A stretch of DNA of 64,000 nt from a virus. This document shows, in pieces, positions 7,582 to 64,000 of this stretch; the stretch's first letter is position 1; each line of letters begins with the position of its first letter. Position numbers and translations under genes: made by a program. Under the pieces are notes generated by a model. It searched no databases, was not told the origin of the DNA, and saw only the letters and a list, made by a program, of their open reading frames with translations. The stretch lies in IMG/VR virus record IMGVR_UViG_3300029238_000243; one strand, written 5' to 3'.

Positions 7582-8610
7582 ATGAGTAAACAGCAGGTAA
7601 GCAACAAGGAATTACAAGCACAAGATACTACTGTTATGCTTGAGAAATATATAGAAGACGAATTAATCGAATCCGAAATGGATAAATGTAAAGAAGATGA
7701 TCAGTATGTATCTGAGTATGAATATGATGAGTCTGATACTTCCGTATCCAATGATGCCATGACAGATTATATGAAACAAATTGGCAACATTAAGATCATG
7801 ACTTCAGAAGAAGAGGTTGCATGTTTTAAACGATTTGAAAGCGGAGACAGAGAGGCTTACGATGAGATTTTCAACCGCAACCTGAAGCTTGTTGTCTCTA
7901 TTGCGAAGAAATATTTTTTAGTTGCAACGAATATGGATCCACTTGATGTCGTTATGGATGGTAATATCGGTTTAATGATAGCAATTCGTAGATTTGACTA
8001 CAGAAGAGGGTATAAGTTTTCAACGTATGCTTCCTGGTGGATCAAACAAACAATCACGAGAGCGATATACAATAACAATAACATGATTAGAATTCCAATA
8101 CACGCAAACGAAGGATTACACAGATACCGTAAACTTATGGAAGAATTGGCGCAATCTGGAAAGCCGGAGCCGCCGGTCAGAGAGATTGCAAAGACAATTA
8201 ATGTTACTGAAGAACAAGTTCTAATCTTTCGAAATATCGTAAACGGAATGGTGAATCCTTCTTCCTTAAACAAACTTGCAAATCAAGAAGAAGATGCTGA
8301 TACAGAGATTCAGGATTTAGTATCTTCCAATATAAACATCGAAAACGAATATATGAACCAGGATCTTAGAGAAACTTTATTTGAAATACTAGATCAATGG
8401 ATAACGAAATATCCAGGAAAAGACAAAGAAAGACAGAGACAGATCATTATAAGGCGTTTTGGTTTAGAGACAGGATCTCCAGAAACCCTGGAAATGATAG
8501 GAGCGGACTACGGCATCACAAGAGAGCGTGTTCGTCAGATTGAGTTGAAGTTCATCCGGTATGCAAGATTACCAAAAAACAAACGAGTATTAAAAGAGTA
8601 CATCGAGTAA
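7582..8610 (+). CDS. Sigma-70 family RNA polymerase sigma factor.
   Basis: It has the region 2 motif FSTYASWWIKQTITRAI and a region 4 HTH (GADYGITRERVRQIELK). Confidence 0.85.
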   Translation: MSKQQVSNKELQAQDTTVMLEKYIEDELIESEMDKCKEDDQYVSEYEYDESDTSVSNDAMTDYMKQIGNIKIMTSEEEVACFKRFESGDREAYDEIFNRNLKLVVSIAKKYFLVATNMDPLDVVMDGNIGLMIAIRRFDYRRGYKFSTYASWWIKQTITRAIYNNNNMIRIPIHANEGLHRYRKLMEELAQSGKPEPPVREIAKTINVTEEQVLIFRNIVNGMVNPSSLNKLANQEEDADTEIQDLVSSNINIENEYMNQDLRETLFEILDQWITKYPGKDKERQRQIIIRRFGLETGSPETLEMIGADYGITRERVRQIELKFIRYARLPKNKRVLKEYIE

Positions 8611-24830: not shown

Positions 24831-25559
24831 ATGTTTCATACAGAAGAATTAAAACAAGTCATTGATCAATTACAGAGTTCTCATGGAGCCAGTCTTGGTT
24901 ATTTTGATACCTTGCTGTTGATTACGAAATTAATCGGACTGTGTGCGGGACCGATTTTATTTGTGTTTGCAGTCTTTGCAGTATTGTATTTTGTTCCAAA
25001 ATATTTACCGCAAATTCTGATACCGCTAGAAAAAGACATGAAGCCATATTATTTTTTGTGCAGCTGGGGAGATCAAAATCTAAATGATCTTCATTTTGAA
25101 GGGATAAGGTTTACGAAGAAATATAAAGCAATCCTTGAAAAACGCGGACATCTAAGATATCAGATAACAACCGTTTTATCCTTAATTGCGTGTTTTTTGT
25201 TAAGTCCATTTTTATTCGTAAGCTTCGGTACTATGTTAACCTACATTACAGTTGTCTGTATCTTTTTATATTGGATTGTAGGAAATAAGACTAAAGATGG
25301 TTATTACCTAACAACTGAAATTGATGATATTAATTTTCGATCACTCTGCCACGAAAACCATTGGGCAATATATGGAAATATTCAAAAACTATCAAGTATC
25401 AATGAGATTGAATCCAATATCAAAGAACAACTGTACAAAGAGGTGTTCTCACTGAAAATGGATAAAGTAGAAATGACACCAATTGAGTTTGAAAAATATA
25501 TGGATGAACATATAGTATCTGACTGTTGTTCTATTCGTTTACCGTTTTCTGAAATCTAA
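24831..25559 (+). CDS. Paralog 1 of a 3-member two-TM membrane-protein family.
   Basis: The N-terminus MFHTEELKQVIDQLQSSHGASLGYFDTLLLITKLIGLCAGP is shared with the genes at 25732 and 26661. Confidence 0.65.
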   Translation: MFHTEELKQVIDQLQSSHGASLGYFDTLLLITKLIGLCAGPILFVFAVFAVLYFVPKYLPQILIPLEKDMKPYYFLCSWGDQNLNDLHFEGIRFTKKYKAILEKRGHLRYQITTVLSLIACFLLSPFLFVSFGTMLTYITVVCIFLYWIVGNKTKDGYYLTTEIDDINFRSLCHENHWAIYGNIQKLSSINEIESNIKEQLYKEVFSLKMDKVEMTPIEFEKYMDEHIVSDCCSIRLPFSEI

Positions 25560-25659
25560 CGAATTCAGTTACTGATTATTTCGGAAACAGATATTTATGG
25601 AGCAAGAGTTGAGTAAACCAATTAATTAGTTTACCGACTTTTTGCTCCCTATTTTATTG

Positions 25660-25698
25660 TTTCCTGACGAGTTTTCCAGATTGTGAGCCTTATTATCA
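25660..25698 (+). promoter_or_regulatory. Class-A promoter-like box.
   Basis: TTCCTGACGAGTTTTCCAGATTGTGAGCCTTATTAT. Confidence 0.45.
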
Positions 25699-25731
25699 AT
25701 AACAAGTAAAGGAAACGAAAGGAGATTATAT

Positions 25732-26439
25732 ATGTTTCATACAGAAGAATTACAACAAATAATTGATCAGTTACAACATGCACAAGGAAGCGGACTCGGG
25801 TATTTCGATACACTACTGCTGATTTTTAAATTAATTGGACTATGTGCAGTTCCTACACTGTTTGTTATCAGTTTAATAGTGATTTTAGTATTGGGACCAA
25901 AATGGATTTCATACAAATTAACGCCAGTGTCAGACACAATGAAGTTATACGATTATCACTTTGTTCTTAAACGAAAGAAAGACAAATATTTTTTGAAGCC
26001 GTCTGATTGGGAAGAAAGTCGTGATTATGAAAAACTACTTTGTAAACGGGGATTCTTGCGTTATAAAATAACCTGTGGCTTCTCTGTAATCGTATTATTG
26101 TTATTAAGTCCATTTCTTTTTAATGACCATACAAAAGTTCTTTTTGGTATATTTACATTTTGTATAATCGTAGGACTTGTACTTACATTGTTTTTCTGTA
26201 ACGATAGTTTTGGTTGCGATGATTGGAGCGATATAGCAAAGGAAAACCCTGTAAATAAAGCAGAAATCAGAAGTCAGTTTCGTGAGAAAATCCAGGAAGC
26301 ATTTAAAACTATAGATACAAAGAAATTGAAGGATATAGATAACCATGAGATTAACCATGAGATAGAACAAACTATAAATGCAACTGTGAATGATCGATAT
26401 TACAAAGCGGTTATCTATGTGAACATTGATGAACGATAG
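25732..26439 (+). CDS. Paralog 2 of the two-TM membrane-protein family.
   Basis: MFHTEELQQIIDQLQHAQGSGLGYFDTLLLIFKLIGLCAVP. The C-terminus diverges from the other two copies. Confidence 0.65.
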   Translation: MFHTEELQQIIDQLQHAQGSGLGYFDTLLLIFKLIGLCAVPTLFVISLIVILVLGPKWISYKLTPVSDTMKLYDYHFVLKRKKDKYFLKPSDWEESRDYEKLLCKRGFLRYKITCGFSVIVLLLLSPFLFNDHTKVLFGIFTFCIIVGLVLTLFFCNDSFGCDDWSDIAKENPVNKAEIRSQFREKIQEAFKTIDTKKLKDIDNHEINHEIEQTINATVNDRYYKAVIYVNIDER

Positions 26440-26660
26440 AATTATCGGAAACGGATATTCACGGGAACAAAAAGGAAGTAAACAAATTAATCAGTTTAGC
26501 AATACTTTTTGTTCCCTGATATTTTGTTTCCGTATAAGTGTATTCGCATCCGGTATTTTTGTGCCAAACTTATCATATAGAACACCGGCTTCTTCGTTAA
26601 CATCGGGCACATATTTAAGACGTAACAAATAAACCATCAAAAGAAAAGGAGAAAAGTATT

Positions 26661-27356
26661 ATGTTTCAAACAGACGAACTTGTAAAAATTATTAACCAGT
26701 TGCAACACGCAGACGGCATGGGGTATTTCGAGACCCTTGGATTGATCTTAAAGTTACTTGGATTATGTGTCGGTCCCGTTATGATTATTGTAGCAGCGAT
26801 CGCAATCGAATATTTCTTGCCGAAACTGGTAGCTAAAAGATTTGTTTCAGTCCCTAACGATTTCAAGCAGTATAATATTTTCATTTATTGTGATCAAGAC
26901 AAAAATCGATTCGAACATTGTTGTACAAGAATGACAGAGGATTTATTACAATATTTGAATAAACAGGAAAAATTCAGAATCATTACTTCCTGGATCTTAA
27001 TTCCAATAATCACCCTGTTTTTATCGCCGATGTTGTTCATTAACATCAACGTGACGATCATTCTTGTATTTGGCTTCTGTGTTGCTTTGTTAATCAAAGG
27101 TTATAATACCTGGACCGTATTTGATTCAAATTCAATTAATATTGCTCCTGATAATATTGCTCCTGATTACAAACGATACAAAGAAAAAGGATACAAACTC
27201 GGACAAAAAGCAGAGTACGTTTGCAGGGAATTAAACAAAGAATATCCTGATCCAACAAAAATATCTGATACAGACAAAGAGGAATGCGCAAAGCGAATTA
27301 AAGAAAAGCTCGAAGATAGTATTTGTGATGTATCGGTCAGATTAGGTCGATTTTAA
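26661..27356 (+). CDS. Paralog 3 of the two-TM membrane-protein family.
   Basis: MFQTDELVKIINQLQHADGMGYFETLGLILKLLGLCVGP. It is preceded by a class-B-like box at 26608. Confidence 0.65.
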   Translation: MFQTDELVKIINQLQHADGMGYFETLGLILKLLGLCVGPVMIIVAAIAIEYFLPKLVAKRFVSVPNDFKQYNIFIYCDQDKNRFEHCCTRMTEDLLQYLNKQEKFRIITSWILIPIITLFLSPMLFININVTIILVFGFCVALLIKGYNTWTVFDSNSINIAPDNIAPDYKRYKEKGYKLGQKAEYVCRELNKEYPDPTKISDTDKEECAKRIKEKLEDSICDVSVRLGRF

Positions 27357-28078: not shown

Positions 28079-28322
28079 GCCGTAAAACAGAAAACAGATC
28101 TTCTTATGAGGGTCTGTTTTTCTTTGCTTGAAACTTGTACATATTTAGTAAATAAGGAACAATAAGTAACGTTCCGAATAATCCGCAATTATAAAGAAAG
28201 GAACTATCACATTGTCAACTACCCATCACAAAGGAGTAAGGAGTGAAAGCTGCCACCTTATGGTGTGCAGAGGAAACTCCGTTCATGTACAAAATAATTA
28301 GAAATATTTTGTAATTTCCTGA

Positions 28323-28360
28323 CGAGGTTTCCAAAATGTGAGCCTTATTGGTATTAAAGA
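28323..28360 (+). promoter_or_regulatory. Class-A promoter-like box inside the mini-element.
   Basis: ATTTCCTGACGAGGTTTCCAAAATGTGAGCCTTATTGG. Confidence 0.4.
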
Positions 28361-28388
28361 GTTTAGAAATAACTCTTTGCGGTTCCAA

Positions 28389-28697
28389 CTGAGACCGTAA
28401 GACTGCAGGACGAAGAGTCCTGTGAAACCTACCATGTAGGGATGTCTTGAACGTTTCTGCAACGGAGAGACTACATCGCTCAATTTATTGAGGGATTGAG
28501 TCTGTATTTCAAGACCACATCAGACAGATTTGAATACCATAAAAAAAACACTGGGAAACTTCAGAGAAGATCCAGATGTCCTGGTATTTCAAACCTTAAG
28601 TGATACCACTCCTTCGGAGTACAGTTCACTCGAGATAAACTCTCGTGATGTCCTCCTGTACTGAAACCTGCCACCTACTGGCGTGCAGATCAGTTAG
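28389..28697 (+). ncRNA. Orphan omega-RNA-like scaffold (the TnpB guide-RNA 3' region) with no adjacent tnpB.
   Basis: It is about 85% identical to the reverse complement of 61973-62200, the region downstream of tnpB, with two extra insertions of about 50 nt. Confidence 0.4.
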
Positions 28698-28859
28698 TAA
28701 GCCAAGATTATAGAACTGCTAATGTTCTATAATGCTAAGCTTCGGAGTGTGTTTGAGTAACAATTTGACAGAACAAAGAAAGGGAACGACATAGCCAGGA
28801 GTGCTCCTCCCACGACTGAAGGCGTGGGTCTCCGCACATGGCTTGTTAAAGGTATTAAG

Positions 28860-31839: not shown

Positions 31840-32625
31840 GAAACAAAAACGAATAAATCGAACCAGTAGGTACCGAATGAGAAAATATCGAAAGAAACGG
31901 TACCGAATGAGTGAATATCGAAAAAACAGGGGTCAAAATTTGTTTTATCGAAAGAAAAGTCGTTTATCGAAAAGAATGCACAGAATCGAAAGAAATAGGT
32001 ACCAAATGAATCAATATCGAAAGAAACGGTACCGAATGAGTGAATATCGAAGAAAACAGGTACCAAAATAGTTTTATCGAAAAATATAGCACCAAATGAA
32101 TGCTTATCGAAAAATATGGTACCGTTTGAAAAATATCGAAAGAAACAGGTACCAAATGAGAATTTATCGAAAAATATGGTACCAAATGAATGCTTATCGA
32201 AAAATATGGTACCGTTTGAGAAATATCGAAAAATATGGCACCAAATTAGATTTATCGAAAAATACGGTACCAAACGAGTGTTTATCGAAAAATATGGCAC
32301 CGATTGAAAAATATCGAAGGAAACAGGTACCAAATGAGAACTTATCGAAAAATGCGGTACCAAATGAATGTTTATCGAAAAATGCGGTACCAAATGAGAA
32401 ATATCGAAAAATATGGTACCAAATTAGATTTATCGAAAAATACGGTACCAAATGAGTGTTTATCGAAAAATACGGCACCAAATTAGATTTATCGAAAAAT
32501 ACGGCACCAAATTAGATTTATCGAAAAATACGGCACCAAATGAGTGTTTATCGAAAGAAACAGGTACCAAATGAATGCTTATCGAAAAATACGGTACCAA
32601 ATGAAGCAATAACGAAAGAAGCAGT
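31840..32625. repeat. Iteron array of about 26 tandem direct repeats of 29-30 bp (TATCGAAAAATAyGGyACCAAATGAnnnnn).
   Basis: The period is visible directly in the sequence. The array sits in a divergent intergenic region, and the six-frame ORFs across it are repeat artefacts. Confidence 0.85.
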
Positions 32626-46165: not shown

Positions 46166-49100
46166 TTATTCATGCGTCCAGTAACTACTGTGATATTTTG
46201 ATGTTAAATATGTAGCTGCTATAGATGTGTTTGATAAATCAGAACTACTAAGTGCTGTTGTCTTCGTACCTTCAGAATCACCTAAATACCAACCGGAAGT
46301 GTTTTCAAAAGATACATAAGTTAATTTATCACAATTACAAAAAGCTTGTTTACCAAGACTTGTGACATTTTTTGGTATAGTGACATTAGTTAAGCTATCG
46401 CAGTACATAAATGTACTATAACCGATACTTGTCACACCTTCAGGAATTATTACGTTATTTAAACTTACACAACTTTGGAACACACGTTCGTTTAATTTTG
46501 TCAAACCTGATGGAAGCTTTACTGTTTTTAAATTAGAACATGCTTGAAATGCGGCGGTTCCGATATTTACAACACTATTAGGAATCACTATACTTGTTAA
46601 TCCCTCACAACCATAAAATAATCCATCACCAATATTGGTGACACTATCAGGGATTGTAACTGACGTTAATCCGGAGCAATGCCAAAATGCATGTGTTCCA
46701 ATACTCGTTACACTATCTGGGATTGTAAGTGAGGTTAAACCTTTACAACCATAAAATGCTTCTTTTCCAATACTTGTCACATCGTCTGGGATTGTAAGTG
46801 AGGTTAAATCTTTACAACGATCAAATGCACAATCTCCAACACTTGTCACACTATCTGGAATCATTATATTTGTAAGACTAGAACAACCTTTGAATGCATA
46901 TTGTCCAACCTTTGTTAATGAATTTGGTAAATGTACAGTTTCTAACGCAGTGCAATCACAAAACGTAGCATCTCCAGTGCTTGTAACGCTGTCTGGGATT
47001 TCGATAGATCTTAAACTTGTACAACCTTGGAACACACCATAGTAATACCTTTCAGAAGTTGGATATTCTCTACCTAAAGTCTGCAAAGCACTATTTTCCT
47101 CAAAAACAACATTCGTTAATGAAATGCAATCTTTAAACACTCCATTGCTTATATTCATTACATTTCGAGGAATTGTAATTGAAGTTAAGCTAGAACAATT
47201 AGAAAATGTAAGCAGTTCGATACTTGTTACGCTGTCCGGTATTTTAATATTTGTTAGCGAAGAACAACCGTAAAATGCATATTGTCCAACCTTTTTTACG
47301 GAATTTGGTAAATGTACAGTTTCTAACACAGTACAATCTCTAAACGTAGCGTCTCCAGTGCTTGTAACGCTATCTGGGATTTCGATAGATTTCAAACTTG
47401 TACAACCTTGGAACACACCATAGTAATATCTATCAAGATCTGTATGTTCTCTACCTAAAGTCTGCAAAGCACTATTTTCTTCAAAAACAACATTCATTAA
47501 TGAAGTGCAATCTTTAAACACACCACTGTTTATATTCATTACATTTCGAGGAATTGTAAGATTTGTGAGACTAGAACAATTGTAAAACGCATTCCAATCA
47601 ATATTAGTTACACTTTCTGGAATCGTGATATTTGATAGACTAGAACATCCATTGAATGTATTATTTTCAATTGCGTTTAAACTATCTGACATGTTTACAG
47701 ATGCTAAGTGTGTACATTCATAAAACGTATAGGATCCCATATTTGTAACACTGTCTGGTATTGTAATACTTTGTAACGAGGTACATCCTTGAAAAACGCC
47801 ATACTTATTTCCACCGGCAACACCGAGAGTTAATAATTTATTATTATTGTTAAATGAAACATCATCTAAAGCGCTATCGTTACAAAACACACCAGAGCTC
47901 ATAGACTCCATTCCAGATCCAATACTTACTCTTTTAAGACTAGTACAATCCTTAAATGCATTATAATCAACGGTCTTTACATTATCCGGAATAGTAATAC
48001 TTGTAAGTGCTGTGTTTAAAAAGGCAGAATATCCTATACTGGTAACATTTTCTGGAATTGACACATTTTGAAGACTTGTGCATGAATCAAATAATCTTTC
48101 ACTGATATTTGTTATCTTACTTGGTATTGTTACACTGGTTAGATTATTACATTTGTAAAATGCACCTCTACCTATGGATGTAACACTATCTGGAATGTAA
48201 ATATTTGTTATTCCATTCATTTGGAACGCCCATGTCCCTATGTTAGTCACAGTGTCAGGAATAACTACACTTGTTAAATTTGCATAATGACCAAATGCAT
48301 TTGACCCGATATTAGTTATTCCAAAAGGGATAACAACTTTCGTTGCTGTGGGATAATTGTTTGTCAAAACGTAATAACCGGATGTTGGTGTCGTTGTATA
48401 AGGGTTTTCACCGGAAGCTGATCCATAATTCTGTGTAACATCAATACCTGATTCCTCCCAAGAACAAAGCATTACATCATTCGCGTTATATAATCCCGGC
48501 TCTTTTGCATTACATACCGTACACACATTATTTACATAATTATGATTAACAATCGCAATGTCTTGTATATCCTTCGTCTGAGCTACGAAAACTGTATTTT
48601 TAAATGTGGCTGTATATGTCGTTGTTCCTTTCGCTGTACATGTTGCAGCCTCTTTAACAGTACTAGAAATCGTTGCTTCTTCTGTTTCTACAGATGAAGG
48701 ATGATTCACACAAGTACGTTTCGCTGTACATGTCTGTCCGTCTTCAGACCAAACATAAGTTGGTTCTCCATAAGTATGTTCAAACAACTCAGAGTCAATC
48801 GTGACATCATTTTCAGTCAAAGCAGAACCAATATCTGTTTTATCATAACTATTCGCTTTGTATTGGATTGCTGATAAGTTAGAACATCCTTCGAATACAT
48901 TAGACTTTACTGTTTTAAGTGCAGATGGAAGTGACACGCTTGATAGTTTCGAACAGTTAGCAAAAGCTCCGGTTCCAATTTCGGTAACAGAGTCGGCGAT
49001 CGCAACACTCGTCATCTCATTGCAATCCCGGAATGCATAATCGCCAATACTGGTTACCGCATGCCTGGTGTTATCTTCGTCTGTTACATATTCCGGAATT

Positions 49101-49729
49101 ACAACGTCGCCTACGGTATCAATCTGATACGTATCAAGATTTGAATTTGTAAGCGATATTCCGTCACCGATCTGATTTGTATTGATTGCGAACGTGAAGT
49201 TACCAGACCAATCACCAGAAGTCAAATCATCTGCTGCTATATTACCATTTGTTTTAGTACCGTCAATCTGATTCACTCCTGTAGAAGAAAACTCAGTCTT
49301 TTCCTGGGCGATGTTTCCGGTAACAGGATCTTTTCCGTTTGCATCATTTAAGGTTACTGTCTGGTCAGGAACAACAGTGATAATATCGTTTCCAAGGATA
49401 TCGCCTTTAACCTTAACATTGTAGGTTGCTGTTTTGTTGCTGTCTAATACAATTGACTTTGGAATTGTAACAGTAAACGAAGACGCCTGGTCATATTTGA
49501 CGACTGCTGCTTTAGATCCGGAATCGTTTGTCTCCTGTTGTCCGTCGGCTGATGTCCCGTCTGTTTGAGTTTCGTCTGCTAATGTTTTGTCTGCCTGGTT
49601 TTCGTCCGCCAAGGTTTCGTTTACCACTGTTTTACCTGCCTGATTTTCGGCAGCCAGTGTTGGAATACTAGGCGTCATTGTAAGAACCGAAGCCAGAACA
49701 AGCAGACAGCTTATTGCTTTTCGTTTCAT
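46166..49729 (-). CDS. Secreted 1187-aa BspA-type leucine-rich-repeat surface protein.
   Basis: It has a signal peptide and more than 20 repeats of the form IPDSVTSIG..AF..C..LTS. Confidence 0.8.
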   Translation of the reverse strand: MKRKAISCLLVLASVLTMTPSIPTLAAENQAGKTVVNETLADENQADKTLADETQTDGTSADGQQETNDSGSKAAVVKYDQASSFTVTIPKSIVLDSNKTATYNVKVKGDILGNDIITVVPDQTVTLNDANGKDPVTGNIAQEKTEFSSTGVNQIDGTKTNGNIAADDLTSGDWSGNFTFAINTNQIGDGISLTNSNLDTYQIDTVGDVVIPEYVTDEDNTRHAVTSIGDYAFRDCNEMTSVAIADSVTEIGTGAFANCSKLSSVSLPSALKTVKSNVFEGCSNLSAIQYKANSYDKTDIGSALTENDVTIDSELFEHTYGEPTYVWSEDGQTCTAKRTCVNHPSSVETEEATISSTVKEAATCTAKGTTTYTATFKNTVFVAQTKDIQDIAIVNHNYVNNVCTVCNAKEPGLYNANDVMLCSWEESGIDVTQNYGSASGENPYTTTPTSGYYVLTNNYPTATKVVIPFGITNIGSNAFGHYANLTSVVIPDTVTNIGTWAFQMNGITNIYIPDSVTSIGRGAFYKCNNLTSVTIPSKITNISERLFDSCTSLQNVSIPENVTSIGYSAFLNTALTSITIPDNVKTVDYNAFKDCTSLKRVSIGSGMESMSSGVFCNDSALDDVSFNNNNKLLTLGVAGGNKYGVFQGCTSLQSITIPDSVTNMGSYTFYECTHLASVNMSDSLNAIENNTFNGCSSLSNITIPESVTNIDWNAFYNCSSLTNLTIPRNVMNINSGVFKDCTSLMNVVFEENSALQTLGREHTDLDRYYYGVFQGCTSLKSIEIPDSVTSTGDATFRDCTVLETVHLPNSVKKVGQYAFYGCSSLTNIKIPDSVTSIELLTFSNCSSLTSITIPRNVMNISNGVFKDCISLTNVVFEENSALQTLGREYPTSERYYYGVFQGCTSLRSIEIPDSVTSTGDATFCDCTALETVHLPNSLTKVGQYAFKGCSSLTNIMIPDSVTSVGDCAFDRCKDLTSLTIPDDVTSIGKEAFYGCKGLTSLTIPDSVTSIGTHAFWHCSGLTSVTIPDSVTNIGDGLFYGCEGLTSIVIPNSVVNIGTAAFQACSNLKTVKLPSGLTKLNERVFQSCVSLNNVIIPEGVTSIGYSTFMYCDSLTNVTIPKNVTSLGKQAFCNCDKLTYVSFENTSGWYLGDSEGTKTTALSSSDLSNTSIAATYLTSKYHSSYWTHE

Positions 49730-53066: not shown

Positions 53067-54857
53067 TTAATCGCCGATGTCGCCAGGATCATCTAAGTCA
53101 TCGAACTCAGGATCATCCAATGCATTTTGGTCATCCAATGTCATTGTGTCTGACATATTAAGTGCGCCTATATTGATATCTCCGGTAATCGGGGCTCCAT
53201 ATTCGAGATGCTGTCTGATTTCCTCCATATCTGAAGCGCTAATACTCGGATCCGCATATTTGGATACATCGATATTATGATCCATACCATACCGAATCTG
53301 TTTCATCTGTTCATTAGTATATTCCGGATCCATATATACAGAGACATCAAGTCCGGATTCCATTCCAATTCGGATCTCATTCATTTGAAATCCGTTAAAT
53401 ACTGGATCTGCATATGTGTAAACAGATGCAAAATCTAAACCATGTCGCAATCCTTCTGTAATCTGGCGCATCTGATAAGAATCAAACTCCGGTTTCGCAT
53501 AGAACGATACATCAATACCAGATTCCAAGGCTTTCTTGAGTTCTAACATCTGGTAAGAATTAAAAGCTGGATCCGCATATTTTGAAACATCAATGCCGGA
53601 TTCCATGCCACGCCGAATTGCATCCATCTGGTATTTGTCATATTTCGGATCCGCATAAATGGAAACGTTTAATCCTTTTTCCAGACCATACCGGATCTGT
53701 CTCATTTGTTTCCAGTCATATCTCGGATCCGTATATTTTAATACATCTACATTGCTTTCAAACCCGAGCATCAACTGATGTTTCTGGTTCGTATCCATCT
53801 GACTTAACAGTGATTTCATTTCTTTTTCTGGATCTGATTCGATTCCTTTAATCATATTAACGTAATTTGTAACATTGATTCCTGCACTCAGTCCAATAAA
53901 AATATTATGCATCTGCTGTGGTGTGAGTGCCGGATCCGCATAAATAGATACATCCAAACCACTTCGCAAGCCATCTTTGATTTCCTCCATCTGTTCTACA
54001 GAAAATGCCGGATCTGCAAACTTGGTAACATCAGCAACAGGCATGCCATCCATCAGTCCAAAACATATCGTATCCATCTGCTTTTGCGTGAACTGCGGAT
54101 TTGCATAAATAGAAGCATCGACGCCCTGCTCAAGACCAAACATAATGGAATCCATTTGCTGTGGCGTAAACTTTGGATCTGCATACGGGGTAACATCAAT
54201 TCCCTTTTCAAGTCCATAGATGATGCTTGACATCTGTTCTGTTGAAAATGCCGGGTCTGCGTATTTTGTAACATCAATTCCGGAAATCAAACCGCTTCTG
54301 ATATAATGCATCTGTGTGGTACTAAGCTCTGGATTACAAAGCGCTGATATGTCGTAGCCTTCTTTCATCACCATATGCATGATTGCCATTTGATCTGAAT
54401 TATACTTTGGGTCTGCATATTTCGATACATCAAATCCATTCTCCAAACCATTCAAGATATAATACATCTGAACAATATCGTATTCTGGGTTTGCATAAGC
54501 AGATACGTCTAGTCCTTCTTTCAGACCTGTCATGATAATACGAAGCTGACCTTCCGTAAATTTCGGATCCATATATTTGGACACATCAAGATTATTTTCC
54601 AATCCTTCTCGGATGAAATACATCTTATCTGCATTGCATGTCGGATCCGCATATTGTGTCACATCAATACCGGATCGTAATCCAAGTTTGATCTCAGTCA
54701 TCTGATCTTCTGTGTACTGTGGGTCTGCATAAATAGATACATCCAGCCCGTCTTCCAAACCTTCACGAATTTCTATTGTTTGTGCAACAGTATACAAAGA
54801 CCAATCAATTTCATTCTCAAGTTGACTTACGTCTACAGGTTTCTTTTTGTCTGCCAT
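53067..54857 (-). CDS. Tandem-repeat protein with about 16 repeats of about 34 aa (consensus ..GL..G.DVS.YADP.F...QM..I...).
   Basis: The periodicity is visible in the translation, for example DVSKYADPKFTEGQLRIIMTGLKEGL. Confidence 0.7.
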   Translation of the reverse strand: MADKKKPVDVSQLENEIDWSLYTVAQTIEIREGLEDGLDVSIYADPQYTEDQMTEIKLGLRSGIDVTQYADPTCNADKMYFIREGLENNLDVSKYMDPKFTEGQLRIIMTGLKEGLDVSAYANPEYDIVQMYYILNGLENGFDVSKYADPKYNSDQMAIMHMVMKEGYDISALCNPELSTTQMHYIRSGLISGIDVTKYADPAFSTEQMSSIIYGLEKGIDVTPYADPKFTPQQMDSIMFGLEQGVDASIYANPQFTQKQMDTICFGLMDGMPVADVTKFADPAFSVEQMEEIKDGLRSGLDVSIYADPALTPQQMHNIFIGLSAGINVTNYVNMIKGIESDPEKEMKSLLSQMDTNQKHQLMLGFESNVDVLKYTDPRYDWKQMRQIRYGLEKGLNVSIYADPKYDKYQMDAIRRGMESGIDVSKYADPAFNSYQMLELKKALESGIDVSFYAKPEFDSYQMRQITEGLRHGLDFASVYTYADPVFNGFQMNEIRIGMESGLDVSVYMDPEYTNEQMKQIRYGMDHNIDVSKYADPSISASDMEEIRQHLEYGAPITGDINIGALNMSDTMTLDDQNALDDPEFDDLDDPGDIGD

Positions 54858-58974: not shown

Positions 58975-60099
58975 ATGAATATATTACAATCCATCTTTAC
59001 CGATTATTATGAACACATCATTTACGAACTCCATCCTCGTCCTGCTGTCATTGAAAATGTCAACAAGATGATTCATTGTGGTGATCCTTCTCACGGTGGT
59101 GCCATGTATGGCTGTCCTCACTGTGGAAATCTTAAATTTGTTCCCTTTCGCTGTAAAAGTCGTTTTTGCCCTTCCTGCGGAAACAAATACAACCAGCTTC
59201 GTTCTTTTCATATGTCCTGTAAGCTTGTTTCTTGCGTTCATCGCCATTGTGTTTTCACTATCCCAGCGGAACTTCGCGTTTATTTTCTCGAAGACAGAAC
59301 TCTCTTAGATTGTTTATTTCATTCTGTTCGTGATGTTGTCTTACGCATGTTTTCCAAAATGAATAAAACCGAAAACTTTACTCCTGGGCTTATCTGTGTT
59401 CTTCACACTTTTGGGCGTGATTTAAAATGGAATCCTCATATCCACGCTCTCATCTCAGAGGGTGGGGCTGGTAACATCACTCCTTGGCGTCCTGTCAAAC
59501 ACTTTGATTACAATTTCCTTCGTAATGCTTTTCGCAAAGTACTGCTTGAACGACTTACCTCCCGCATTGGTCCGGCTTTTCGCAAAGTCAAAAATGAAAT
59601 GTACACGAAACACGCTGACGGCTTTTATGTCCGTGCAAAACCAAATCTTTGCACTCCTGATATCACCATTAAATACATCAGCCGATACCTCGGCAGACCT
59701 GTTATTGCCACATCGCGTATTGATACTTATGACGGTGAAAACGTAACCTTTCATTACACCAGACACGAAGACAATAAAACTGTTACTGAAACCATTCCTG
59801 CTTTAAACTTCATTCAAAAACTCATTGTCCATATCCCCGAAAAACATTTCAAAATGCTTCGCTACTATGGGATATATGCAAAACATCATAAGCAGGAAAT
59901 GAAGCTCCGTAAATGTATTTCTGCCGAAAAACAACGTTTCCTACGTTCTATTCAGGACTGGCGGCAATCCATTCTGCTCTCTTTCGGATACGACCCTCTC
60001 TGTTGTTCCGAGTGTGGTACTTCTATGTTGGTTTTAGAAGTTTACCACAAAAAAACTGCACTATTTGAACAATATCGAAAGGTTATGAAATATGGATAA
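58975..60099 (+). CDS. IS91-family (Y2 HUH rolling-circle) transposase.
   Basis: It has an N-terminal zinc-binding motif (CPHCG..CPSCG), the HUH motif HTFGRDLKWNPHIHALISEGG and the segment RYLGRPVIATSRI. A hairpin (CCCCTAACCCCTCATTCATGAGGGGAAGGGG) lies upstream. Confidence 0.75.
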   Translation: MNILQSIFTDYYEHIIYELHPRPAVIENVNKMIHCGDPSHGGAMYGCPHCGNLKFVPFRCKSRFCPSCGNKYNQLRSFHMSCKLVSCVHRHCVFTIPAELRVYFLEDRTLLDCLFHSVRDVVLRMFSKMNKTENFTPGLICVLHTFGRDLKWNPHIHALISEGGAGNITPWRPVKHFDYNFLRNAFRKVLLERLTSRIGPAFRKVKNEMYTKHADGFYVRAKPNLCTPDITIKYISRYLGRPVIATSRIDTYDGENVTFHYTRHEDNKTVTETIPALNFIQKLIVHIPEKHFKMLRYYGIYAKHHKQEMKLRKCISAEKQRFLRSIQDWRQSILLSFGYDPLCCSECGTSMLVLEVYHKKTALFEQYRKVMKYG

Positions 60100-61708: not shown

Positions 61709-61972
61709 TTAACCAAAATAATAAGTACCATTAACAGTATCCAAAAGTGCGGTTACATTGTTGAGTTTGATATTTAGGTTATCGAAGTCTACAATTTCCG
61801 AAAACTTTACGATATCATAACTCTTACTGTCAATAATTTCTCTGAGTTTATCAGTCGCTGCTTTCCCTGTTTTGTAGTAATTGATGAGGTTTACAATATA
61901 ATTTCCAAAAACATAGACATATAGGACAACGAATACAGCAGCAGCACAAATTGTGCGATCACGATACTCAAG
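61709..61972 (-). pseudogene. 3' part of a membrane-protein gene interrupted by the IS605-family insertion.
   Basis: The reading frame is open right up to the IS right-end boundary and contains no start codon (LEYRDRTICAAAVFVVLYVYVFGNYIVNLINYYKTGK...). Confidence 0.55.
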
Positions 61973-62200
61973 CTAACTGATCTGCACGCCAGTAGGCGGC
62001 AGGTTTCAGTACAGGAGGACGTCACTTAAGGTTTGAAACACCAGGACATCGGGATCTTCATTGAAGTTTCCTGGTGTCTTTTTTATGGTATTCAAAGCTG
62101 TCTGTTGTAATCTCTCCGTTGCAGAAACGTTCAAGACATCCCTACAGGGTAGGTTTCACAGGACTTTCGTCCTGCAGTCTTACGGTCTCAGCTGGAACCG
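61973..62200 (-). ncRNA. Putative omega RNA (TnpB guide-RNA scaffold) downstream of the tnpB 3' end.
   Basis: A conserved structured region lies between the tnpB stop and the right end of the element. It is duplicated in the mini-element. Confidence 0.45.
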
Positions 62201-62278
62201 TTTAAAATGTATATGTAAAATAGAAACTGTAGTTTTGTTCTATGTGTGTATATAAAAAGTTATTGTTCCATGTATGTG

Positions 62279-63766
62279 TTACGCAGCTCTTTTGAGTCCA
62301 AAACTGGAAGGGATATGTTTTACGGACCGTAAGATCTCGGTAATACACTGGTCATGCATATTTTTAAACTGAGGATAGTTCTGAAGGCATTTATCACGGT
62401 CTGTGTGTTCCAAAGTATCATCGGAATTCATGAGGAGAAAAGCACTGTAGAGATCACGCTGTACCCATTCTCCGTTTATGGTGTTGTGACGTCTGGAAAG
62501 TTTCTTTCTCCAGTACGTATCACTGGTATGGTCATACTGGCTTGCTTTAAACGTCCAGGTATTGACTTCGTGGTAGGTTCCTCCGGTGTAACCAAGCTTT
62601 CTCTTCAATATGGTAAGAAACTGGGATGGAGCTCTGGTCCCGATGGATTTTCCGAAGCGTTTCTTCCGTTTATATTTCCCTTTCTTATTCTTTTCCGTCT
62701 TTTTGGACCGTTTCTGTAATCCCTTGAAATTCATGTCCTCAACATAAACCTCATTGCCTTCTTCCAATAACAGGTTCGCATAGGCTTCCTGCCATTGTCT
62801 CAATGTGTCGGAACGTTTTCTCTGCATCGCACTGAGTTCGTTACGGATCTTTTTGTACCGGTTGCTGTAGTTCCAGGTTTTCCTTCCCTTCTTTATGGTA
62901 CCGTCCGCATTGTAATTGTCCGGATTGGATGCCCGTCTGGATCGTTCCAGTTTTCGCTGCATCTTCCGGATCTTTTTATCCTGTACTTCAATCCCTTTCC
63001 CAAGTTCTGTGAGATGACATTTTGTATCACTCACTGTAGCAACAGTGGAAGTACCAATATCAATACCGACCCTTCCGGTACCCACTGCATGTCTTAACGG
63101 CGGTGTCCCTTCCTGTACCAATTGTACGTAGTATCTCCATCCGGTACTGAACTTCTTTCTTACAATTCTGCAGTATTTTGTTCTGTCATTTAAAGCAGAA
63201 GTCTCGTAATACCAATGATCCGTGTTTTGATTTCCTGGTAATATCACATCCAGTGTCAGACCACGGTTCTGTCTCTTTGGGGATGCATTGATGTATACTT
63301 TTCCGTCTTTGTAGATGATCCCTGTTGTATTCTTTTTGCCTTCGAAACTTAAGAATTCATCCCATTTCTTGTAATGGATCTGTTTCCCGGTGGAATACAA
63401 TACTTTTTCCACACCTTTCCATACCGAGTCACTGATCTTCTGATAAACTGCAGAATGTACGTATTTTAAGTTACATCTCAGTTTTGTGGCGGATTTCTGG
63501 AGGTCGTATTGTGTGAGCCCGTAAGATTTTACAATAACAGATAACTGTTTTGACAGGGCTACCTTCTCTGGACCTTTCTCAAGTGCCACATACTGCTTTA
63601 AGAGATCCGTATAAGTTTTATCCCGTTTCAGTAATGTGATCTGCCGGATCGCAAAACGACGGATTGTATTACCGATCTTCGCTACTTCTCGGAAATAGTT
63701 TTCCAGGTAACGCTGGTCGGAATATTTCTTTGTATTCAGTTTTAACTCCAGCGTGTAAGTAGGCAT
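62279..63766 (-). CDS. tnpB: TnpB-like RuvC-fold nuclease (IS605 OrfB family).
   Basis: It has RuvC-I (VGIDIGTSTV), RuvC-II (EVYVEDMNFKG) and a C-terminal RDLYSAFLL (RuvC-III-like) motif. The true start is MPTYTLELKL, with the RBS ggaggaaaacgatcATG. Confidence 0.75.
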   Translation of the reverse strand: MPTYTLELKLNTKKYSDQRYLENYFREVAKIGNTIRRFAIRQITLLKRDKTYTDLLKQYVALEKGPEKVALSKQLSVIVKSYGLTQYDLQKSATKLRCNLKYVHSAVYQKISDSVWKGVEKVLYSTGKQIHYKKWDEFLSFEGKKNTTGIIYKDGKVYINASPKRQNRGLTLDVILPGNQNTDHWYYETSALNDRTKYCRIVRKKFSTGWRYYVQLVQEGTPPLRHAVGTGRVGIDIGTSTVATVSDTKCHLTELGKGIEVQDKKIRKMQRKLERSRRASNPDNYNADGTIKKGRKTWNYSNRYKKIRNELSAMQRKRSDTLRQWQEAYANLLLEEGNEVYVEDMNFKGLQKRSKKTEKNKKGKYKRKKRFGKSIGTRAPSQFLTILKRKLGYTGGTYHEVNTWTFKASQYDHTSDTYWRKKLSRRHNTINGEWVQRDLYSAFLLMNSDDTLEHTDRDKCLQNYPQFKNMHDQCITEILRSVKHIPSSFGLKRAA

Positions 63767-63803
63767 GATCGTTTTCCTCCATTTTAGTTTCTTAGCTATA
63801 TAC

Positions 63804-63840
63804 ATCATAAGGCTCACTTTTCGGAAACCTCGTCACATTT
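63804..63840 (-). promoter_or_regulatory. Class-A promoter-like box about 45 bp upstream of tnpB, inside the IS.
   Basis: Its reverse complement is AAATGTGACGAGGTTTCCGAAAAGTGAGCCTTATGAT. Confidence 0.45.
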
Positions 63841-63902
63841 TTACATATTATTTTGTTTTATTTTACTGAAATTCATCTGCACACCAGAAGGTGGCAGCTT
63901 TC

Positions 63903-64000
63903 TTTCAGATTTTCTTTGTAAACGCCATAACCTGCCAACGCTAAAAAGACAGCTAAAAATAGTACCCAAAATGCGAAATGCAGTTTTCTGTTTTCCTCTG
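63903..64000 (-). pseudogene. 5' part of the IS-interrupted membrane-protein gene. It continues beyond the window.
   Basis: The translation ..KLHFAFWVLFLAVFLALAGYGVYKENLK ends exactly at the IS left border. Confidence 0.5.

Follow-up and report, generated by a model that had tools for sequence, protein, structure and literature searches.

An insertion in IMG/VR virus record IMGVR_UViG_3300029238_000243 raises the question of how a tnpB gene that stands alone between transposon ends came to carry the same promoter-like box as the genes of its host replicon. We analysed a 64,000-nucleotide (nt) stretch of this record, here called the window, to which all coordinates refer unless a contig is named; related contigs are numbered with an L and protein clusters with a P. 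Very probably, the insertion is a tnpB-only, non-autonomous member of the IS200/IS605 family that descends from an IS608-like tnpA-tnpB element, carries TnpB and an omega-RNA as cargo, and has had a backbone promoter-like box swapped in. Two features take it beyond the routine, namely the exchange of its promoter for one of the carrier's type and a conserved TNB domain without a zinc finger; it is otherwise an ordinary IS200/IS605 member.

The borders are fixed by DNA from sibling contigs. Eight of these (L001-L008) have the site empty, reading GGTTATGGCGTTTAC directly followed by CTTGAGTATCG and thereby joining position 63918 to 61972, and comparison with the occupied site gives a difference of exactly 1945 nt with zero bases duplicated or lost. 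The whole tnpB-only, IS608-like insertion sequence (IS) therefore spans 61973-63917 on the minus strand. It lies 3′ of TTTAC (core TTAC), the target and predicted transposon-associated motif (TAM), which belongs to the flanking DNA outside the element (63918-63922, minus strand) and ends the flank as GGCGTTTAC; in all eight contigs, the empty junction can also be read as GGCGTTTAC followed by CTTGAG. The right end of the element, which closes with GTGCAGATCAGTTAG, falls exactly at 61973. Searches of IMG/VR for the exact junctions of the occupied site, of the empty site and of a hypothetical empty site for the second copy in the window returned no match.

The gene that received the insertion encodes a small membrane protein. 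Its 5′ part (63918-64000, minus strand, ending FWVLFLAVFLALAGYGVY), placed by homologs and empty sites, holds the first transmembrane (TM) helix and continues past the window edge, and its 3′ part (61709-61972, minus strand, from LEYRDR to GTYYFG and the stop codon), which aligns with clusters P0121-P0127, holds the second. With the joined flanking open reading frame (ORF) as query, we recovered these seven clusters, the best of which is 131 aa long and 92% identical over the full query. All seven read LALAGYGVY/LEYRDRTI across the junction, and the insertion point is the loop between the two TM helices of this 131-aa backbone protein. In L005-L008 the uninterrupted gene lacks 1 nt (GCGTTGCAGG against GCGTTGGCAGG in the others; near 10090 in L005) and is called from a later start as a 104-aa product, so the membrane-protein gene may be dispensable.

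A first-pass annotation, made from the letters of the window alone, had bounded the element precisely at 61973-63902, with GAAAG and GATCAGTTAG as its borders and YKENLK/LEYRDR as the peptide restored by excision. The right border stands, as do the in-frame rejoining of the flanking ORF, for which intact homologs were found in related contigs, and the absence of a target duplication, on which the empty sites of the eight contigs agree. The left border falls 15 nt short of the true one at 63917. There is some appeal to a cut at 63902, which preserves the frame and leaves GAAAG directly 5′ of the left hairpin in both window copies. Such a boundary would, however, require AAAGAAAATCTGAAA at the junction of the uninterrupted homolog, and the 15 nt and their peptide KENLK are absent from eight of eight empty sites and seven of seven intact proteins. 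Since every intact cluster runs GVY/LEY, with AGYGVY before LEYRDR at the junction, KENLK is part of the insert, and the proposed excision stayed in frame because an error of 15 nt is divisible by three. Moreover, the 20 nt 5′ of the left hairpin are conserved among copies at other sites, and GAAAG is internal to the left end, where it contains the 4-nt guide beside the hairpin, and is no border; an element exactly so bounded has next to no chance of being correct. GAAAG as a retained target (frame KESLSIVIAQF to a stop codon) was likewise ruled out by the intact homologs. The annotation had named three outcomes as fatal to itself, and the reverse was found for each: intact homologs of the joined ORF exist, the RuvC residues are conserved and the two copies share their ends.

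The layout of these ends bears on how the element would move. A 20-nt linker at the left, AAAGAAAATCTGAAAGAAAG (63898-63917, minus strand), finishes with AAAG (63901-63898), which the IS608 layout and the co-variation of guide and target identify as the left guide, GL. It abuts an imperfect hairpin, CTGCCACCTTCTGGTGTGCAG (63877-63897, minus strand), with a bulged T and an outer stem CTGAAA/TTTCAG. The right-end hairpin, CTGCCGCCTACTGGCGTGCAG (61982-62002, minus strand), is also imperfect; AAAC at 62006-62003 is its guide GR and TTAG at 61976-61973 the cleavage site CR, such that the hairpin has AAAC on its 5′ side, ATCAGTTAG on its 3′ side and 9 nt between it and the right border. The two hairpins, which the first-pass annotation had noticed, are near-identical (63897-63877 and 62002-61982) and lie on the same strand; their arms are CTGCCACC and GGTGTGCAG at the left and CTGCCGCC and GGCGTGCAG at the right, and both contain a bulged T. 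The outer left stem shows co-variation when left-end types are compared (GGAGT/ACTCC and AGGCT/AGCCT), as does the right hairpin stem across 21 relatives.

In IS608, the target is TTAC, the cuts are made 19 nt 5′ of the foot of the left hairpin and 10 nt 3′ of that of the right one (PMC3201880), and 4-nt guides, AAAG at the left, stand directly 5′ of each hairpin (PMC3201880). The window element resembles this Helicobacter pylori transposon in its insertion 3′ of TTAC without duplication, in its same-strand subterminal imperfect hairpins, in the placing of its cuts (about 19-20 nt 5′ of the left hairpin foot and about 9-10 nt 3′ of the right one), in the AAAG that abuts the left hairpin (PMC3201880) and, through its autonomous relatives, in the co-directional, abutting or overlapping arrangement of tnpA and tnpB. 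It differs in that it is without tnpA, in its right cleavage site TTAG with guide AAAC (IS608 has TCAA), in a larger TnpB (495 aa) that lacks a zinc finger, and in a backbone-type box in place of an IS promoter.

Guides and targets change together among the copies. GL AAAG pairs with target TTAC at about seven distinct sites (copy 1 in the window, L009/L016, L033, L034/L035, L042, L046 and L049), where the other AAAG copies sit 3′ of ATTAC, CTTAC, GTTAC or TTTAC, and GL GAAG pairs with target TCAC at six (L025, L030, L032, L038, L039 and L040). At the right end, guide AAAC goes with cleavage site TTAG and guide GAAC with TCAG, both among the copies and in metagenomic relatives. Such co-variation is what recognition of the ends by a Y1 transposase, in the manner of IS608 TnpA, should produce. 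L034 and L035 have their left IS flank in common (ending GACTTTGTTTAC) and differ in their right flanks, that of L034 being the one found in L009, which suggests either recombination between IS copies or assembly chimeras.

A transposase of this kind is encoded by relatives with the same ends. L030 and L032, whose TnpBs are 83% and 69% identical to that of the window, have a 139- to 140-aa PF01797 Y1_Tnp gene abutting tnpB on its upstream side, and L018 and L019 retain the 3′ end of a Y1_Tnp-type gene, broken off by the contig end. As these same-ended relatives encode Y1_Tnp while the window does not, we class the window element as tnpB-only (IS1341-type) and non-autonomous. It does not belong to the IS607 family: NCBIfam IS607_TnpB scored 31.8 bits against a cut-off of 350, and the TnpA of its relatives is a Y1 enzyme, not a serine recombinase. 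The element entered as single-stranded DNA 3′ of TTTAC, between the TM helices of the 131-aa protein. Judging from the co-variation and from the IS608 literature, its movement would depend on a Y1 TnpA acting in trans that recognises the two same-strand hairpins and finds its cuts by guide pairing, AAAG with TTAC at the left and AAAC with TTAG at the right. An excision circle would then show a right end-left end (RE-LE) junction in which CAGTTAG is followed by AAAGAAAATC.

The cargo gene, tnpB (62279-63766, minus strand), encodes 495 aa behind a ribosome-binding site (RBS), GGAGG, and was identified from Pfam and NCBIfam matches, an alignment of homologs and a structure model. The first-pass annotation had proposed a search with TnpB hidden Markov models and had asked whether the RuvC catalytic residues are present: Pfam OrfB_IS605 matched above its cut-off (34.5 bits against 30.5), NCBIfam guided_TnpB matched below its own, and the triad D236 (GIDIG), E343 (YVEDMN) and D438 (QRDLYSA) is invariant in 35 homologs (42-95% identical). 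A phmmer search of the Protein Data Bank (PDB) with TnpB gave nothing relevant and a profile of the 35-homolog alignment reached a single solved TnpB-like chain, 9j09_A (a 540-aa "Transposase"), and we therefore turned to a structure model. In the profile match, E343 and D438 align with FEDLN and DRDLNAA, the latter preceded in 9j09_A by CxxC...CxxC; the four cysteines of that chain face non-cysteine residues of TnpB, in whose clade an invariant SQY.H takes their place. The zinc-finger-less TNB is conserved in at least these 35 aligned homologs; about 4300 database proteins match at E ≤ 0.001.

The AlphaFold2 model has a mean predicted local distance difference test (pLDDT) score of 90.4. Foldseek ranks Cas12p, ISFba1 TnpB, ISDra2 TnpB and Cas12f as the best PDB matches of the model (E 1e-12 to 1e-10), with a TM-score to the target of 0.52-0.68 over these matches and of 0.65-0.68 for the two TnpBs. 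The fold comprises the WED, REC and RuvC parts of ISDra2 TnpB (PDB 8H1J/8EXA; Foldseek E 2.6e-11, TM-score to target 0.65) and has the same D-E-D triad; the two systems are also alike in an omega-RNA drawn from the right end, in a pseudoknot of guide-adjacent nucleotides with a 5′ segment and in a TAM that equals the transposon target. They differ in sequence (about 14% identity), in the predicted TAM (TTAC here, TTGAT in ISDra2), in the position of the omega-RNA, which in the window lies wholly downstream of the stop codon, and in the TNB, which in ISDra2 TnpB carries a zinc finger (PMC10097598) and here has the invariant SQY.H without the CCCC finger. On the strength of the model and alignment, TnpB is a protein of TnpB/Cas12f fold with an intact RuvC triad, minus the zinc finger, and a predicted nuclease.

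Two other TnpB loci of these backbones differ from it. In L009-L017 (TnpB clusters P0006-P0008), an IS copy between a dUTPase gene and a 376-aa gene has an in-frame 43-aa deletion at about residues 288-330, between RuvC-I and RuvC-II, and these copies may be inactive through it. L113, a close backbone relative, has upstream of its dUTPase gene a different, classical TnpB of 376 aa (L113:2416-3546) with HTH_OrfB_IS605 and a zinc-ribbon TNB, which indicates that the backbone collects several TnpB lineages.

Downstream of the tnpB stop codon, about 306 nt of non-coding DNA extend to the right end, and the last 228 nt or so of these (61973-62200, minus strand) form an omega-RNA-like scaffold. Stem 1 pairs 62200-62196 with 62187-62183, and a pseudoknot pairs 62193-62188 with 61980-61975 (minus strand), thereby joining the loop of the 5′ stem to the last nucleotides of the element (TCAGTT). 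We aligned the right-end regions of 21 relatives (TnpB identity 37-95%) and scored three named helices, the 5′ stem, the right hairpin and the pseudoknot. Standard pairs filled 94.2% of cells, versus 28-37% when partners were slid by one to three columns; 12 of the 19 pairs showed compensatory changes, and the covariation score was 0.475, with slid controls below 0.1. In 500 shuffles, none reached the observed value on four of five measures, and two did so on the fifth. Pseudoknot pair 47-304 is AU in 10 relatives and GC in 10; each of the loop variants ACTG, ACAG and ACGG occurs with a matching 3′ partner. The first-pass annotation had suggested examining this interval for a covariance structure, and its pairing is now supported by covariation; the window scaffold also folds better than its shuffles (z = -3.4). 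Further inner stems are supported in closer relatives, and we claim them for these only, since on the widest alignment, which is poor in the central part of the scaffold, RNAalifold returned just two helices. Covariation of the hairpin could serve TnpA on single-stranded DNA, an RNA, or both; that of the 5′ stem and pseudoknot speaks for an RNA. In ISDra2, a pseudoknot likewise joins a 5′ segment to nucleotides -5 to -3, which directly precede the guide (PMC10097598).

By the TnpB/omega-RNA layout (PMC10097598), the guide would be the 16 nt of flanking DNA that a transcript reaches on running past the right end, CTTGAGTATCGTGATC (61957-61972, minus strand), which in the empty sites of relatives directly follows TTTAC. 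A TTAC TAM followed by CTTGAGTATCGTGATC is thus the empty site of sibling contigs, an arrangement that would be expected for TnpB-mediated retention or homing. Retention or homing is a known role of TnpB. Here, the 3′ end of the scaffold would read into the flank, the predicted substrate of the TnpB complex is TTAC-CTTGAGTATCGTGATC, as still present in the unoccupied sites of sibling backbones, and such cutting would favour the element's retention or homing.

Upstream of tnpB stands the promoter-like box, TGACGAGGTTTCCGAAAAGTGAGCCTT, followed by TATGAT (63809-63835, minus strand). That such a box lies inside the element, upstream of tnpB and shared with other genes, was already seen in the first pass; we place it 42 nt from the ATG and find that it recurs across the window. 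The core TGACGAG-N13-GAGCCTT occurs 11 times there, nine times in the backbone and once in each IS copy (in a shuffle test with a longer, 25-nt form of the pattern, which recovers 5 of the 11 copies, the number expected by chance was 0). Three tandem paralogs of 231-242 aa (24831-27356, plus strand) vary in copy number among relatives, and the first two have a box 36-40 nt upstream of their start.

Whether the box is a promoter decides what its presence in the IS implies. All 11 copies are co-oriented with the next gene, six of them (tnpB and five backbone genes) precede an RBS-bearing start codon by 36-50 nt, and a TATNAT-like hexamer follows nearly every one. A repeated signal of another sort, such as a site for a repressor or partition protein or an RNA motif of the 5′ untranslated region, would make the box in the IS uninformative on shared transcription; for it speak the lack of canonical -35/-10 geometry (the -11 A is missing and the TATNAT is 21 nt from TGACG) and the 5 of 11 boxes that lie outside the 36-50 nt range of a clear start codon. 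We consider such a signal unlikely, given the uniform orientation, the spacing and the hexamer, the silence of Rfam on any RNA family, and the fact that in the IS the box takes the place of a sigma-70-like extended -10 promoter of autonomous relatives. Two more specific identities were tried and rejected: a plain sigma-70 promoter, since the essential -11 A is missing from TGACGA-17-CCTTAT and the better hexamer, TATNAT, is 21 nt away from TGACG, and a hammerhead-like RNA (CUGANGAG, with CUGANGA), as most copies lack the required GAAA core and Rfam is silent.

The comparison with other copies indicates how the element acquired its putative promoter. Every backbone-borne copy that we read carries the box, with either type of left end (copy 1, L009 and L033-L035; copy 2 and L025-L029). 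It was found neither in autonomous relatives, whose left ends have an extended -10-like TGGTATAAT or TTGTATACT before tnpA, nor in five TnpB loci of bacterial genomes. Directly 5′ of the tnpB ATG, some 15 nt look like the 3′ end of tnpA, and a backbone box at L005:408-434 has exactly the spacer found in the copy 1 box. To judge by these sequences, the simplest history is one in which a promoter-like segment of the backbone replaced tnpA together with its sigma-70-like promoter. Box-bearing copies that are 93-95% identical occupy at least five different TTAC or TCAC sites in related contigs, and the element has therefore moved since it gained the box. Read as a promoter, the box is plausibly the shared link of tnpB to one regulator of backbone genes: tnpB, and the omega-RNA by read-through, would be transcribed from it alongside about nine backbone genes, possibly through a backbone RpoD-like sigma factor. 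The backbone has an RpoD/RpoS-like sigma factor gene (7582-8610, plus strand; Sigma70_r2 and r4, PHROG "RNA polymerase sigma factor") with a box 112 nt upstream, and its product, being backbone-encoded and itself preceded by a box, is a candidate reader of the box.

A number of observations tell against a mobile, box-driven, nuclease-bearing element as set out above. No tnpA was found in the 64-kb window by tblastn, and no close one on IMG/VR viral contigs (best identity 55%). Over 3401 nt, the occupied copy 1 allele does not differ among five contigs (L121-L125; 100% identity) and shows no sign of ongoing movement at this site. The box departs from canonical sigma-70 geometry with a good -10, and both its promoter function and its factor are read from sequence. 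Rfam recognised no family anywhere in the window. The guided_TnpB score of 80.9 bits is under the cut-off of 100, no Pfam zinc-ribbon domain was found in TnpB and all four zinc-finger cysteines are missing from it, for which reasons nuclease competence is not assured.

These points invite a different explanation, in which the locus is an immobile, domesticated, backbone-controlled cassette for an RNA-guided nuclease that acts against sibling genomes or the host, its transposon ends being relics. Such a cassette would fit the missing tnpA in the window and on related viral contigs, the backbone-type promoter that the element carries, the identical occupied allele across samples and the fixed, decayed state of copy 2 (below). 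Yet copy 1 has its guide and cleavage site matched at both ends and its hairpins intact, and the 93-95% identical box-bearing copies at five or more TTAC/TCAC sites imply movement after the gain of the box. TldR, a domesticated and nuclease-dead prophage TnpB, is similar in being a TnpB relative on a phage-like element under non-transposon control, but the window element retains its RuvC triad, unlike domesticated TnpBs of that type, and its transposon ends, and is thus not a TldR. We regard domestication as quite improbable, and a non-autonomous IS mobilised in trans as the better account. What the identity of the occupied allele does indicate is that the insertion is fixed in a sub-lineage, and the recency proposed in the first pass is not demonstrated: L121-L125 come from at least three sample accessions (a Joint Genome Institute (JGI) collection and two European Nucleotide Archive (ENA) assemblies), two of them assembled from other sequencing runs.

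The second copy in the window is a tnpB-less derivative of 468 nt (28230-28697, plus strand) that has in common with copy 1 both ends, the box and most of the 3′ non-coding region. The first-pass annotation had recognised the shared ends and had begun the copy at 28245; the layout places its start at 28230, with CATCAC before and AAAGGAG after the border, a position set by analogy with copy 1 and other copies since no empty site was found for it. Its parts, all on the plus strand, are a left hairpin (28250-28270), the box (28320-28346), an omega-RNA-like region (28380-28697) and a right hairpin (28668-28688). Its GL, AAAG, mismatches the flanking TCAC (elsewhere, its left-end type has GAAG), its right hairpin has one A.C mismatch, and its omega-RNA part contains two insertions of about 45 nt that are absent from all other members. 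It is 99.4-100% identical in seven related contigs and hence fixed; copy 2 is a decayed, fixed, tnpB-less relic. The pair recalls IS1341-type elements and derivatives resembling palindrome-associated transposable elements (PATEs) and miniature inverted-repeat transposable elements (MITEs), in that copy 1 has tnpB alone between IS200/IS605 ends and copy 2 has ends and an omega-RNA region with no ORF; in contrast to these, the loss of tnpA came here with a carrier-specific box that full and miniature copies both hold. A palindrome of about 30 nt (CAAGATTATAGAACTGCTAATGTTCTATAAT) lies at 28703-28735, just outside the right end of copy 2, and occurs within the loop of the right-end hairpin as a single copy in L009-L017 (L009:7657-7690) and L034 and as a tandem pair in L033; possibly, it is a very small hairpin that is mobile or promotes recombination.

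In copy 2, the box lies 33 nt upstream of omega-RNA stem 1, and from this arrangement its RNA could be a stand-alone guide RNA. One could go further and suppose that the element has been absorbed into the carrier's transcription programme as an RNA-guided drive or exclusion weapon, with copy 2 supplying a second guide in trans, a proposal that we put forward as speculation and hold to be doubtful. Were it true, TnpB cutting at TTTAC-CTTGAGTATCGTGATC would convert or eliminate co-circulating siblings during co-infection, and the copy 2 guide gene would be a natural intermediate from transposon-bound TnpB toward multi-guide, CRISPR-like systems.

The carrier of both copies is a human-gut element of about 320-364 kb, a phage or a plasmid. 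Contigs with the occupied allele include ones of 364 kb and 322 kb, and short contigs break inside the IS; complete contigs in the range of 322-364 kb are JGI 3300045988 Ga0495776_179707 and _098148 and ENA ERZ915025 k127_31874. Related contigs are listed as viral in IMG/VR, and gut megaplasmids larger than 300 kb have recently been described (PMC12934698). Phage and plasmid collections, searched by BLAST with the element, contained either no match or nothing beyond short tnpB fragments at 70-75%. At 31986-32605, with a minus-strand gene of 376 aa on one side and a plus-strand gene of 493 aa on the other, both without a family match, lie about 20 direct repeats of 29-30 nt (TATCGAAAAATAYGGYACCAAATKAG), an array that looks like the iterons of a replication origin; this array and the megaplasmid description (PMC12934698) are our reasons for leaving phage and plasmid side by side. 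An IS91-family transposase gene (58975-60099, plus strand; NCBIfam transpos_IS91, 304 bits; Y2_Tnp) is present in L121, L124 and L125 and absent from this position in L122 and L123, and hence is a second, polymorphic IS near the TnpB element. Two long genes, at 46166-49729 and 53067-54857 (both minus strand), are built of 69-nt and 78-nt repeats; homologs in relatives match LRR_5 (BspA-type leucine-rich repeats), and the two probably encode surface or host-interaction proteins.

In most descriptions, TnpB elements are transcribed from promoters of their own or by read-through. Here, comparison with autonomous relatives shows that tnpA and a sigma-70-like promoter gave way to a box of the carrier's promoter type, after which the element spread to several sites within the lineage of its 320- to 364-kb carrier. 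If the box is a promoter, nature would here have coupled an RNA-guided nuclease to the life cycle of the replicon that carries it. Because real empty-site targets exist in sibling genomes, homing or exclusion between competing genomes is directly testable in this system, and the zinc-finger-less TNB and the TTAC TAM may be of interest in the mining of compact editors.

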